Source: Nitrososphaerota archaeon
GTDB taxonomy: Archaea; Thermoproteota; Nitrososphaeria; Nitrososphaerales; Gagatemarchaeaceae
Assembly (NCBI GenBank): GCA_005877225.1
Contig: VBPK01000002.1
Span: forward strand, 1 to 36,805
DNA: 36,805 bases
Reading direction: 5' to 3'
The notes under the pieces: generated by a model
Told to the model about the DNA's origin: nothing
Seen by the model: only the letters and a program-made list of their open reading frames with translations
Database searches by the model: none
In this document: in pieces, positions 28,398 through 31,307 of the stretch
Numbering within the stretch: position 1 is the stretch's first letter
Layout of the letters: every line of letters begins with the position of its first letter
Position numbers and translations under genes: made by a program

Positions 28398-29243
28398 GTG
28401 ATATTGGGCGTGCGTACTCGCAAGACTTTGCCCTACATCGTGGCGACTTCACTGCTCATTCTCACAATTTTCCCGTTATTTTGGATGGTGTCTTTCTCGT
28501 TTAAGGGCGTGGAAGAACTAACCCAATTTCCAGAGCCGCTTTACTGGCTGCCTCAGCGGCCAACGCTCTCTAACTATGAAGAGGCTTTCGCAACATTTAC
28601 GGGCCTTAAGGCGATCTGGGAGAGTCTCTCGATAGCCTTGGTAAGCACAGTGTTTGCGCTACTCATCGGCTTTCCGGCTGCCTATGCAGTCGCCAGACTC
28701 CGTGTTCACAGGACTAGGTTTTCGGTTCTTCTCGTTCCTCTTATCCTGCGCGTCATGCCTTCTGCAGTCCTCGCTATCCCATTGCTTGTCTTCTACTCCA
28801 CGTTCGGTCTAATCGATACAGCGGGCGGTATGGTCCTCGTCTATGGGGGTACCACCGTCTTCTACGTGATTTGGCTGGTAAAACCGTTCATAGACGCCAT
28901 GCCCCCTGAGATTGAAGAGGCCGCTATGGTGGACGGAGTCCCACGATGGAAGGTTCCGTACTGGGTAACACTCCCCACCGTACTAGGTGGTGTGCTGATA
29001 GCTGCTTTCTTTGTCTTCTTACTGGATTGGACCGAATTTGTCTTCGTGCTAAGCCTGGGCCGCATAGAGATACAGACGATCCCGGTGGTGATGACCTCCC
29101 TTTCTGCTTTCGGCGTCCTTTCTGGCGCCCACGGCGACGCTTCGGCTGTCAGCACCATCTCCCTCCTACCATTCCTGGTGGGAGCGTACTATTTGCAGAA
29201 GCAATTACTGCGAGTCTCACTGTTCGGACCAGTCGGAAGGTAA
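28398..29243 (+). CDS. ABC importer permease, MalG/UgpE-like (tandem paralog 1)
   Basis: GTG 28398 is preceded by aggag 8 nt upstream. Motifs IFPLFWMVSFSFK and EAA loop EEAAMVDGVPRWKVPYWVTLPTVLGG. Confidence 0.85.
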   Translation: MILGVRTRKTLPYIVATSLLILTIFPLFWMVSFSFKGVEELTQFPEPLYWLPQRPTLSNYEEAFATFTGLKAIWESLSIALVSTVFALLIGFPAAYAVARLRVHRTRFSVLLVPLILRVMPSAVLAIPLLVFYSTFGLIDTAGGMVLVYGGTTVFYVIWLVKPFIDAMPPEIEEAAMVDGVPRWKVPYWVTLPTVLGGVLIAAFFVFLLDWTEFVFVLSLGRIEIQTIPVVMTSLSAFGVLSGAHGDASAVSTISLLPFLVGAYYLQKQLLRVSLFGPVGR

Positions 29244-29381
29244 AGTCGAGCGAAGCTTGATTGATGTTCTTGGGCCTTTTGCCCTCTCTCGGCATCGGGC
29301 ATGCTAAGAAGTCCGGATTCCGGCGAGTCTTGATAGATAAATAACCTGCGCTCAAGCCAGCATTTCGGGCTGGGAATCTCA

Positions 29382-30218
29382 ATGGCTGCAGTAAGAAGGA
29401 GTAGGCACCCATTTTTTGTGTATACGTCATTGGTGATAGTTGTCGTCGCAACCCTTTTCCCGGTCTTCTGGGTTGTCTCCAGCTCCTTCAAGACCAACTT
29501 TGAACTGTTCTCATTGCCTGCTCACTGGCTCCCTGCAACACCCACCCTCTCAAGCTATACAGTAGCTTTTGCCAGTCAGGGCGGAGTACAGGCCATCTCT
29601 AACAGTCTTGTCATCGCCTTTGGCGGCACTTTTCTGGCACTTCTCATCGGATTCCCATCAGCGTACGTGATTTCAAGGTACAGAGGCGGGAGGTTCGCCC
29701 TCTTCGTCCTGCCCCTTATCATGCGGGCTTCCCCTCCTGCCGTCATCGCGATCCCACTCCTCATCTTCTATTCTTCCCTCGGGATGGTGGATACGCTGCA
29801 GGGATTAGTCTTGCCTTACAGCGCTGTAACAGTTTTCTACGTCATTTGGATGATAAAGCCCTTCATAGATGCTGTGCCACGTGAGATTGAGGATGCTGCG
29901 ATGATAGATGGTGTGCCAAGGTGGAGAATTCCCTTCGGCCTTATCCTGCCCATGGTGGCAGGCGGAGTCGTAGCCGCGGCCATCTTTGTCTTCGTTTTGG
30001 ATTGGACGGAATTCACACTGGCACTTATGCTGACCAGAATGCAGACCCAGACCATCCCGCTTCAGATGGCCGCGTTCAATGCCCTGGGAGCAATTTCGGA
30101 AGGTCAGGGTCAGGCCGCGGCCCTTAGCACGGTTTCACTTGCACCGTTTCTGATAATTGCGTACTTCTTCCAGAAGCAACTGGTGAGGACCTTCTCCGCC
30201 GGAGCGGTCAATAGGTAG
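29382..30218 (+). CDS. ABC importer permease, MalG/UgpE-like (tandem paralog 2)
   Basis: Motifs LFPVFWVVSSSFK and EAA loop EDAAMIDGVPRWRIPFGLILPMVAGG. Long blocks are nearly identical to 28398..29243 (VFYVIW.IKPFIDA, LDWTEF). Confidence 0.85.
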   Translation: MAAVRRSRHPFFVYTSLVIVVVATLFPVFWVVSSSFKTNFELFSLPAHWLPATPTLSSYTVAFASQGGVQAISNSLVIAFGGTFLALLIGFPSAYVISRYRGGRFALFVLPLIMRASPPAVIAIPLLIFYSSLGMVDTLQGLVLPYSAVTVFYVIWMIKPFIDAVPREIEDAAMIDGVPRWRIPFGLILPMVAGGVVAAAIFVFVLDWTEFTLALMLTRMQTQTIPLQMAAFNALGAISEGQGQAAALSTVSLAPFLIIAYFFQKQLVRTFSAGAVNR

Positions 30219-30281
30219 GGAAACCAGACAACAGACTAACTGCTGCAACTTGTCGCCAGGGCGTGACATCGGTAATGCCGC

Positions 30282-31307
30282 ATGAGAAATGATGTCGAAA
30301 GGGTTGAGGCAATCTTAGGGAGGAGAACCGGAGAAAAGACCTGCTCCTCGCCCCTTCAAACTGCCACTCTGGAACTGATGGGTCTGGCAGATACCTACTG
30401 GCCTCAGGCCCACTCCGACCCTGAGATGATGGCCAGACTATCTGCGGCAGCGTATGAGTTCGGGGGGATTCCGAGTCTAAGAGTCCCATTTGACATCTGT
30501 GTCGAGGCCGAAGCAATCGGATGCGAGGTCAGGATGGGGAGAGCGGACACTCCCCCCTCGATCATGAACCCCGCGTTCACAGAATTCGATGAGCTCAAGA
30601 TCCCTAACCTGGTTGAGGAGAGGGGGCGTATCCCAACGCTGCTGAGAGCCACCAAGCTCCTTAATGGCAGATACGGAAGTTCGATTCCGATCTTTACCAT
30701 GATAGTTGGACCGATGACGTTGTTGGGTTTCTTAGTTGGTATCGAAAAGACACTCTACACCCTTTCCACACAACCTCAAGCCCTGGAGAATGCCCTGGAC
30801 GCCATCGCGCGATTTAACGTAGATTACGCGAATGCTCTTCTAGACGAAGGCGGTGATTTTGTTCTTGTTGCCGACCCTGTGGCTTCAGGAGATCTGGTGG
30901 CAGCCGAGCATTTCGCTAGATACGTCCTCCCACTTTATCAGAGAATTCGAAGACAGCTGAGGGTAAGGGCGATCCTTCACATTTGTGGAAACACAAATCC
31001 CTTCCTCAGGTACTTACCCGAAACAGGGTTCGAGGCGTTCTCCTTTCACGGTCCGGAGGTGGAGGTCAAGGTCGCACGGAGGATCATCGGCGACAGGATG
31101 GCTCTGGTCGGCAACCTGCCCAATGCAACGCTCCTGAGGTATTCCACTCCCGCCGTCATTCGGGCTCGCTCTCTGAAAGCCCTTCAAGACGGCGTCGATA
31201 TTTTGGCGCCCGCTTGTGGTTTCCATCCCCACACGCCTTTGGCTAACATGAAGGCGATGGTTAGGGCGGTTGAGAAGTATGAGTCTACAGTAGATTCCCC
31301 GCGATGA
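30282..31307 (+). CDS. Uroporphyrinogen-decarboxylase-fold methyltransferase, MtaA/MtbA (methylcobamide:thiol MT2) family
   Basis: Block-by-block resemblance to recalled Methanosarcina MtaA: WPQAHSDPEMMARL, RVPFDICVEAEAIGCEV, RGRIPTLL and VADPVASGDL. Zn ligands are present: ILHICGN (His, Cys) and LAPACG (Cys). Confidence 0.85.
   Translation: MRNDVERVEAILGRRTGEKTCSSPLQTATLELMGLADTYWPQAHSDPEMMARLSAAAYEFGGIPSLRVPFDICVEAEAIGCEVRMGRADTPPSIMNPAFTEFDELKIPNLVEERGRIPTLLRATKLLNGRYGSSIPIFTMIVGPMTLLGFLVGIEKTLYTLSTQPQALENALDAIARFNVDYANALLDEGGDFVLVADPVASGDLVAAEHFARYVLPLYQRIRRQLRVRAILHICGNTNPFLRYLPETGFEAFSFHGPEVEVKVARRIIGDRMALVGNLPNATLLRYSTPAVIRARSLKALQDGVDILAPACGFHPHTPLANMKAMVRAVEKYESTVDSPR

Follow-up and report, generated by a model that had tools for sequence, protein, structure and literature searches.

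The DNA stretch studied here (the window) comprises 36,805 nucleotides (nt) of contig VBPK01000002.1, from a Nitrososphaerota archaeon of the Gagatemarchaeaceae (assembly GCA_005877225.1). Its genome, labeled G000, is a 2.0-Mb bin of 256 contigs that is 84% complete, and the window is contig C54 of this bin. Three consecutive genes on the plus strand are central: two tandem genes for permease subunits of the ATP-binding cassette (ABC) importer type and, behind them, a gene for a soluble methyltransferase of the MtaA/CmuA family, or MT2. A fourth gene, divergent from the first permease gene, encodes a short GTPase of the COG0523/CobW type. Soluble MT2 enzymes are TIM barrels that bind a thiol, sulfide or selenol at an active-site zinc, which they methylate, or catalyze the reverse reaction; they are regarded as parts of anaerobic, corrinoid-protein-dependent methyl transfer. 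The enzyme encoded here belongs to this family and has an altered zinc site. No corrinoid partner was detected for it in its genome, and its conserved companion appears, from gene order, to be the GTPase, which the initial annotation of this DNA overlooked, and not the permeases.

The family assignment of the methyltransferase is clear. The protein matches the Pfam URO-D family (PF01208) with 222.8 bits and passes the cut-offs of two NCBIfam models, NF004889 ("methylcobalamin:coenzyme M methyltransferase"; 323.4 bits, cut-off 244) and TIGR01463 (MtaA/CmuA; 285.6 bits, cut-off 235.4). The equivalog models are not reached, with 308.4 against 400 for MtaA (NF040654) and 214.2 against 600 for MtbA (NF041608). 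A HemE identity was rejected, the TIGR01464 score being 53.1 for a cut-off of 302.95. The best match among solved structures is the MtaA of Methanosarcina mazei (4ay7_A, E = 1.1e-65); LHICGN aligns on LHICGN and LAPACG on LAPGCG, so that the His-x-Cys and Cys motifs are in register with those of the Methanosarcina enzyme (4AY7/4AY8). The AlphaFold2 model (pLDDT 92.6) superposes on the same chain in Foldseek with TM-scores of 0.94/0.95, an rmsd of 1.5 Å and 34% identity. Weaker matches are UroD structures (TM ~0.8, 18–21% identity) and MetE (TM ~0.6). The gene is a genuine MT2-type MtaA/CmuA member of the URO-D superfamily; the initial annotation had proposed this from the MtaA likeness and the zinc ligands, and its expectation that the protein is not a HemE is borne out as well.

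The zinc ligands His233, Cys235 and Cys312 withstand careful alignment, being invariant in 32/32 aligned relatives and in all 74 MT2-like rows. The fourth position is different. As stated by Pejchal and Ludwig (PMC539065), the zinc ligand set of MT2-A is the same as that of MetE (His, Cys, Glu, Cys), and the ligands of the Thermotoga maritima MetE include His618 and Glu642. The acidic ligand is not kept in the window enzyme: His256 is aligned with Glu269 of 4ay7_A. The spacing between the histidine and this position is 23 residues here versus 24 in MetE. The clade to which the enzyme belongs has 12 members, as distant as 52% identity, and residue 256 is His in nine of them and Gln in the other three. 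When the 11 close members are set aside, 62 of 63 MT2-like rows have Asp or Glu here, and the sole exception, with His, is P0015, the basal member of the clade. An acidic residue, Asp or Glu, likewise occupies the position in 132 of the best 150 cluster representatives.

Two other residues near the ligands in sequence are characteristic. Arg286 is present in 12/12 clade members and is Leu in the relatives; His315, three residues after the Cys ligand, is likewise present in 12/12 and is Pro or Ala in the relatives. Met140, Asp37 and Ser162-Thr163 are also common to all twelve. The combination of His/Gln256, Arg286 and His315 was not encountered among the 150 best cluster representatives, where the clade itself is seemingly represented by one 169-aa fragment alone. 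Compared to the Methanosarcina MtaA, the window enzyme thus combines a score below the equivalog cut-off with a His/Gln fourth ligand position and a new Arg/His pair. The substitution of His or Gln for a labile acidic ligand can be considered nature's own test of the way in which the metal site of zinc-thiolate alkyltransferases is opened.

Several genomes were compared. G001 and G002 are of the same genus as G000, G052 is of another family of the same order, and L058 is a metagenome locus. Loci of the genus type are the window, L025/L027, L055 and L056, with L027 carrying a 97%-identical copy of the window locus; the loci of G052 are L026/L028. Among 61 related genomes, orthologs of the methyltransferase occur in only three, G000, G002 (97% identity) and G052 (66%). 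Across 401 genomes sampled evenly from the phylum, G000 alone gave an ortholog-level match, the matches in 28 other genomes being 35–40% identical. A search of 5.8 billion clustered proteins gave 14 clusters at 66% identity or more and one (P0015) at 52%, the next being at 48% or less. The clade is a small, rare subfamily, seen so far solely in bins of non-ammonia-oxidizing thaumarchaea and in soil-type metagenome contigs. It is under clear purifying selection, the signature residues being unchanged over the whole range of 52% to 100% identity.

A 91-row tree was built by a quick search with SH-aLRT support, distant URO-D-like rows serving as the outgroup, and several of its long branches were flagged. 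The clade, with P0015 as a member, has a support of 100. It nests, with a support of 98, in a group of 38 rows, mostly proteins from Thermodesulfobacteriota-type metagenome-assembled genomes, together with one Hydrothermarchaeota protein. Rows named MtaA or MtbA in their source, and those from Methanosarcina, Methanobacterium and Methanomassiliicoccales loci, fall outside this group. The MtaA of G046, an archaeon of the same order, is in a different clade from the window enzyme. A second URO-D-like frame of G000 (L002, C227:2-1327) lies at a contig edge and has an HVCGEN motif; it is one 441-aa open frame, and its C-terminal part reads like a flavin-reductase-type domain.

The GTPase contains the P-loop, CVCC and NKxD motifs, and GxxGxGKT, GCxCC, ExxG and NKxD are invariant across an alignment of 25 sequences (A3). 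The Pfam scan detected the cobW domain only, without the CobW_C C-terminal domain, and the relatives are also of about 200 aa. The NF041053 model for CobW-related selenoproteins is not reached (101.3, cut-off 180). The only other cobW-domain gene in G000 is ureG, inside the cluster of urease accessory genes present in this genome. In the article by Haas et al. (2009, PMC2770081), COG0523 subfamily 13 is described as co-localizing with corrinoid methyltransferase genes. The window GTPase resembles this subfamily as a G3E GTPase with a CxCC motif beside an mtaA-type gene; the likeness is drawn from the published description. It differs in being short, in lacking the C-terminal domain and in having a lone MT2-like gene as its neighbor, in a genome that yielded neither a corrinoid protein nor an MT1 or activase.

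The association of the GTPase with the methyltransferase extends beyond the genus. The methyltransferase gene of G052 and a GTPase gene (74% identity) point directly away from each other across a spacer of 148 nt, and no permease, hydantoinase or carbamoylase gene was found on this 8.6-kb contig. In L058 (66% ortholog of the methyltransferase), both genes are also divergent, ~1 kb apart, with small open reading frames (ORFs) on the opposite strand between them and neither hydantoinase nor carbamoylase downstream of the GTPase. In the genus-type loci, the GTPase gene is on the far side of the permeases from the methyltransferase gene. It is present in 4/4 clade loci that reach its position, and high-identity orthologs of both proteins occur in the same three of the 61 related genomes. 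For P0006 and P0117, a methyltransferase and GTPase pair, the longest contig is 32,892 nt for both; for P0015 and P0141, it is 25,206 nt for both. These two contigs thus seem to carry a gene of each kind. The divergent short GTPase is, on the best reading of this gene order, a conserved functional partner of the methyltransferase. Most likely, it would use GTP to load the catalytic metal into the enzyme, by analogy with COG0523 proteins and the co-localization of subfamily 13.

In the window's genus, the GTPase gene is also the first of a minus-strand string, followed with falling coordinates by an M20 carbamoylase gene (37-nt gap), a D-hydantoinase gene, the genes for two MalK-like ATPases and one for a lipoyl-domain protein. 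Hydantoinases and M20 amidohydrolases are generally metal-dependent, and the GTPase could mature these neighbors, the MtaA-like gene being an adjacent and functionally unrelated acquisition. We consider this quite improbable: the GTPase of G052 and L058 retains an MtaA-like divergent neighbor and has no hydantoinase or carbamoylase downstream. Moreover, within the 61 genomes, GTPase homologs of 45–47% identity are limited to G040, G046 and G060, each of which also has MtaA-family genes, and the COG0523 link described in PMC2770081 is with corrinoid methyltransferases. In G046, the short CobW-like gene (47% identical) is situated away from the mta cluster, beside genes for a GHMP kinase and a 2-oxoacid:ferredoxin oxidoreductase. 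A strict pairing with a GTPase of ~200 aa would be an unusually simple chaperone-client pair in a family whose clients are mostly unknown.

The initial annotation had pointed out that no corrinoid protein, MT1 subunit, binding protein or ATPase adjoins the permease and methyltransferase genes on the plus strand, which is correct; searches of G000 for corrinoid-binding and activase domains gave no MtaC-type or RACo match either. PF02607 had no match in G000, G001, G002 and G052, and the same search was positive in the controls G046 (three matches) and G040 (four). PF02310 was above its cut-off only for frames of 154–157 aa, of the type of the methylmalonyl-CoA mutase small subunit; the G000 match is a 143-aa protein beside a long frame that, by eye, reads like the catalytic subunit of this mutase. 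The RACo-type activase domain (PF14574, RACo_C_ter) has no match in the window's genome, and neither MttB (PF06253) nor CbiC, a marker of cobalamin-ring biosynthesis, was found in the three genomes of the genus. Searches with phmmer using MtaB, two MtaC proteins and a bacterial corrinoid protein returned nothing from the six-frame ORFs of G000. A cognate corrinoid protein, an MT1 and a reductive activase were all not found in this genome (bins of 64–84% completeness). The presence of a heme-copper oxidase subunit I (COX1) suggests aerobic respiration. In these respects too, the host differs from Methanosarcina: it has a heme-copper oxidase and no detected MtaC, MtaB, RACo-type activase or coenzyme M (CoM) pathway beyond ComA.

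Gene neighborhoods were counted within 5 kb, with small numbers and kin that are not independent; L073, a 133-residue clade fragment, fell in the distant bin by its score. A corrinoid protein is present at none of seven clade loci, at 5/11 sister-group loci and at 60/90 loci of distant relatives. ABC importer genes are found at 4/7 clade loci, all of the genus type, at 5/11 sister-group loci, four of them with an NMT1-type binding protein, and at 6/90 distant loci. Molybdopterin oxidoreductase genes occur within 5 kb of two sister-group loci. More broadly, the MtaA-like genes of L029, L030, L032 and L063 are beside ABC importers of the NMT1 type (nitrate/sulfonate/taurine family), those of L030, L031 and L063 are also beside molybdopterin oxidoreductases, and L029, L061, L063 and L065 also have a corrinoid protein and a second URO-D gene.

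The enzyme could still be an ordinary corrinoid-dependent MT2. Its corrinoid protein, MT1 and activase would then have genes elsewhere that escaped detection through bin incompleteness. The completeness of the three carriers (84% for G000, 64% and 77% for the other two), the corrinoid proteins next to the sister-group genes and G046, which in the same order possesses a complete mtaB-mtaC-mtaA cluster and a second corrinoid protein (L152, G046:C31:949-5130), speak for it. Nevertheless, we regard it as rather unlikely. PF02607 is missing from three independent carrier bins, and a joint miss by incompleteness would have a probability of ~0.16 × 0.36 × 0.23, roughly 1%, a rough figure that assumes independence. 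The negative searches for the RACo domain, MttB, MtaB and the cobalamin-ring marker, the oxidase and the altered active-site residues of the clade further argue against this explanation.

CoM, the obvious acceptor, is not supported as such. Homologs of ComA (phosphosulfolactate synthase) are present in 3/3 genomes of the genus (five matches, two copies in G000), ComB and ComC were not found in the searches, and the neighbors of the ComA genes are unrelated; CoM synthesis is therefore unsupported, ComA alone having been found. The two G000 copies are at C131:2874-3710 and C72:2498-3478, the second with a C-terminal winged-helix (MarR/TrmB-like) tail. A role as a substitute methionine synthase was rejected as a need, as the genome already contains six Meth_synt_2 matches (eight in G001); the search for a MetH/BHMT-type domain was negative. 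At G000:C216:10036-12846, a number of short MetE-like (Meth_synt_2) frames are in tandem.

The nature of the substrate is suggested by the zinc sphere. In the preprint of Kountz and Balskus (PMC10418091), a His-Cys-Cys zinc sphere is a mark of the S/Se-methyltransferases within the superfamily, and thus a sulfur or selenium substrate is indicated for the window enzyme. The same preprint describes the Type 1 mlp clusters, which are comparable in that they contain soluble CoM methyltransferase homologs of non-methanogens, with His-Cys-Cys and proposed methyl-S/Se substrates. The window, however, has a single MT2-like gene, neither it nor its genome yielded a corrinoid protein or an activase, and it is not such a cluster. 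MetE offers a precedent for methyl transfer without a corrinoid: it has a related barrel, activates its substrate by a zinc-thiolate and has the ancestral His/Cys/Glu/Cys set. It differs by its double barrel, its folate donor and a very low sequence similarity to the window enzyme.

The reading that we somewhat favor is that the gene encodes a rare, remodeled S/Se-methyltransferase that is free of a corrinoid protein, matured by its own COG0523 GTPase and riding, in the window's genus, on the transcript of the second permease gene. The enzyme would bind a sulfur or selenium nucleophile at its metal and take the methyl group from a protein-free methyl-cobamide, or directly from an activated donor as in MetE. 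Most likely, it would work alone, without a dedicated corrinoid carrier, as no MtaC-type protein was found in the three carriers, no MT1 or activase in G000, and a heme-copper oxidase is present.

A more specific version of this reading is clearly more speculative and is put forward as a tentative possibility. An MT2 lineage would have been freed from corrinoid carriers in oxygen-respiring soil archaea, with a His-Cys-His/Gln-Cys site loaded by a mini-COG0523 GTPase and the new Arg/His pair near the ligands in sequence. It would perform direct methyl transfer between small S/Se compounds, or use a free cobamide cofactor; if true, each of the two would add a type of reaction that has so far not been reported in the MtaA family.

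A number of points weigh against the favored reading. The ancestral enzyme was probably corrinoid-dependent, because a corrinoid protein adjoins the gene in 5/11 loci of the sister group, and because the carrier genomes are incomplete, a partner could be encoded elsewhere. To our knowledge, there is no corrinoid-independent member of the MtaA branch. The GTPase, as the head of the carbamoylase-hydantoinase-ATPase string, could serve those metalloenzymes. Lastly, Glu as the fourth ligand of MtaA rests on the statement in PMC539065, on the spacing shared with MetE and on its fit to the ligand numbering of MtaA.

The permeases are the other conspicuous element of the locus (Table 1). For both, the GlcU/MalG models score best (permease 1, GlcU 69.6 and MalG 51.1 bits; permease 2, GlcU 95.3 bits), with little or no score for the GlcT/MalF models, and both have the FP.FW..S.SFK N-terminus and the EAA loop, as described in the initial annotation. 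They are identical at 150 of 277 residues (54%), which together with the coordinates and the 63-nt gap between permease 2 and the methyltransferase gene corroborates the tandem, same-strand paralogs noted there. The start of permease 1 is uncertain: 28317 (TTG), ~28368 or 28398 (GTG), with homology to permease 2 beginning just past 28398. The census of the window proposed by the initial annotation, three MalG-like and one MalF-like permease, one ATPase pair and one binding protein (a candidate without family match), also stands. Like CUT1 MalG/GlcU subunits, both permeases match BPD_transp_1 and have an EAA loop. Unlike CUT1 importers, in which MalF and MalG are paired, the two are MalG-type subunits in tandem, and their operon supplies neither a MalF-type gene nor a binding protein or ATPase; the MalF-type gene of the window is 7 kb off, in the so-called island, with its own MalG-type partner (44% identical to permease 2).

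Table 1. Coordinates of the principal features of the locus and of the neighboring ABC importer island.
Feature	Coordinates	Strand	Size and evidence
Candidate anchored binding protein	18420-20183		587 aa; no family match; RRQAI signal, then Ser/Thr-rich linker, by eye
MalF-like permease	20264-21169		Family profile scores
MalG-like permease ("island" MalG)	21079-22032		Family profile scores
Two MalK-like ATPases	22668-24897	-	38% identical to each other
Short COG0523/CobW-like G3E GTPase	27685-28314	-	209 aa from TTG start; PF02492, 118.6 bits
Divergent intergenic region, GTPase versus permease 1	28315-28397		ACATAAATAC, TATA-like box at 28349-28358; putative promoter
Permease 1, MalG/GlcU-type ABC transmembrane subunit	28398-29243	+	BPD_transp_1, 42.2 bits
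11-nt element TGATAGATAAA, TATA-like core	29331-29341	+	41 nt upstream of permease 2
Permease 2, MalG/GlcU-type ABC transmembrane subunit	29382-30218	+	BPD_transp_1, 52.1 bits
MtaA/CmuA-family (MT2-type) methyltransferase	30282-31307	+	341 aa; family profiles, fold, ligands

Permeases of this type are not tied to the methyltransferase gene in other genomes. G052 has a single one, 62–66% identical to permease 2, which follows luciferase-like and CoA-transferase genes. Its sequence is divided between two contigs that share exactly 120 nt at their ends. G008 also has one (59% identical), at a contig edge elsewhere in the genome. In a small permease tree, the type forms a 100/100 clade apart from the island MalG, with a stem branch of 0.8 for permease 1, which appears to be the faster-evolving copy; the tree gives no order of splitting among permease 1, permease 2 and their counterparts in G008 and G052. 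From this clade and the single-copy relatives elsewhere in G052 and G008, the tandem pair appears to be a genus-level duplication of a type that is not linked to the methyltransferase.

The initial annotation had connected the enzyme with the permeases, and this claim holds only in part: the gene order is kept in the window's genus, but the 66% orthologs of G052 and L058 have no adjacent permease. Its more explicit proposal was that the MalG-MalG pair is a second translocator, which borrows the binding protein and the ATPases of the island, and that the methyltransferase may modify or demethylate whatever is imported, perhaps a hydantoin or amino compound bearing N-methyl groups. In line with such a coupling are the gene order from the GTPase over permease 1 and permease 2 to the methyltransferase, conserved in the four covering genus-type loci, the 63-nt gap without a TATA-like box, the island, which has a single MalF/MalG pair along with a candidate binding protein and a pair of ATPases, and the ABC importer genes near the bacterial sister-group loci (5/11, versus 6/90 for distant relatives). 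We nevertheless hold this proposal to be unlikely. Besides the orthologs without adjacent permease, the single permease of G052 is in another operon, and no hydantoinase or carbamoylase genes are present at the G052 locus. Furthermore, the ABC systems of the sister group are of another family, with NMT1-type binding proteins, and the His-Cys-Cys sphere suits S or Se and not N-methyl groups, following PMC10418091. A unit of MalG-MalG translocator plus enzyme is thus specific to the genus, in view of G052 and L058.

The 11-nt element TGATAGATAAA gives a clue to the history of this arrangement. It occurs once in the 2.0-Mb genome, counting both strands, that is, once in the window, and it is found in every clade locus that covers the region (window, L025/L027, L055, L056, L026/L028 of G052 and L058). 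The only match outside the clade among the 164 loci compared is in the unrelated L085. In G052 and L058, the element lies 38 nt from the start codon of the GTPase gene, with its orientation towards the methyltransferase gene unchanged. In the window, a degenerate copy, ACATAAATAC, is situated 35–45 nt from the GTPase start. The TGATAGATAAA region may therefore represent the ancestral divergent promoter region of the GTPase and methyltransferase genes. In the window's genus, a permease gene would have been inserted between the element and the methyltransferase gene, and the promoter and permease would then have been duplicated. In L058, two ORFs of 82 aa and 43 aa (807-1187, minus strand) lie between the element and the methyltransferase gene, occupying the slot held by the permeases in the window's genus.

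The 63-nt gap contains no TATA-like box, and the element precedes permease 2 by 41 nt; one transcript therefore probably covers permease 2 and the methyltransferase gene in the window's genus, a prediction made from the DNA alone. A hairpin-like stretch, GGGCC-TTTT-GCCC, follows permease 1. Three soil metatranscriptome runs from one study (shares of at most 0.05) yielded RNA contigs of 192 nt within permease 2 (29646-29837) and of 151 nt at 31528-31677; in these thin runs, no RNA contig bridges 29243-29382 or 30218-30282.

Part of this picture has been published: PMC2770081 links COG0523 to mtaA-type genes, and PMC10418091 describes MT2 homologs of non-methanogens aimed at S/Se compounds. Literature searches, with subscription journals outside their coverage, found neither a thaumarchaeal MtaA clade lacking a corrinoid protein nor the substitution of the fourth ligand. 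Archaea with a terminal oxidase and without a detectable corrinoid carrier would point to unrecognized methyl-S/Se chemistry in soils, or to a new use of salvaged cobamides. The comparison with G052 and L058 also corrects two tempting readings of the window, one in which the enzyme is tied to the permeases and another in which the GTPase is tied to the hydantoinase operon.

Beyond the methyltransferase gene, a second hydantoinase-like gene is found on the minus strand, and the order GTPase(-), permease 1, permease 2, methyltransferase(+), hydantoinase-2(-) is common to the four genus-type loci. In the window, two separate ORFs (31971-32900 and 31600-32013, minus strand) make up this hydantoinase/allantoinase-like gene. 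Compared to the intact 466-aa gene of G002, it has a single deletion of 100 nt at nucleotide 896, the sequences being otherwise identical at 1287 of 1301 positions; the split gene is either a pseudogene or an assembly fault. Between it and the methyltransferase gene lies a small unannotated ORF of ~69 aa with a CPHC motif (~31380-31589, minus strand), whose region is overlapped by the 151-nt RNA contig.

Some genes near the G052 ortholog have counterparts in the window's genome. The MFS transporter beside the G052 locus (L026:1344-2573) is an ortholog (584 bits) of the window MFS gene at 8250-9488, which is situated 19 kb from the methyltransferase gene, and the two genomes also have luciferase-like, CoA-transferase and MaoC genes in common, which suggests an accessory island that is conserved only loosely. 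A 160-aa ORF that follows the G052 ortholog, without a homolog in G000, reads as an anchored surface protein.

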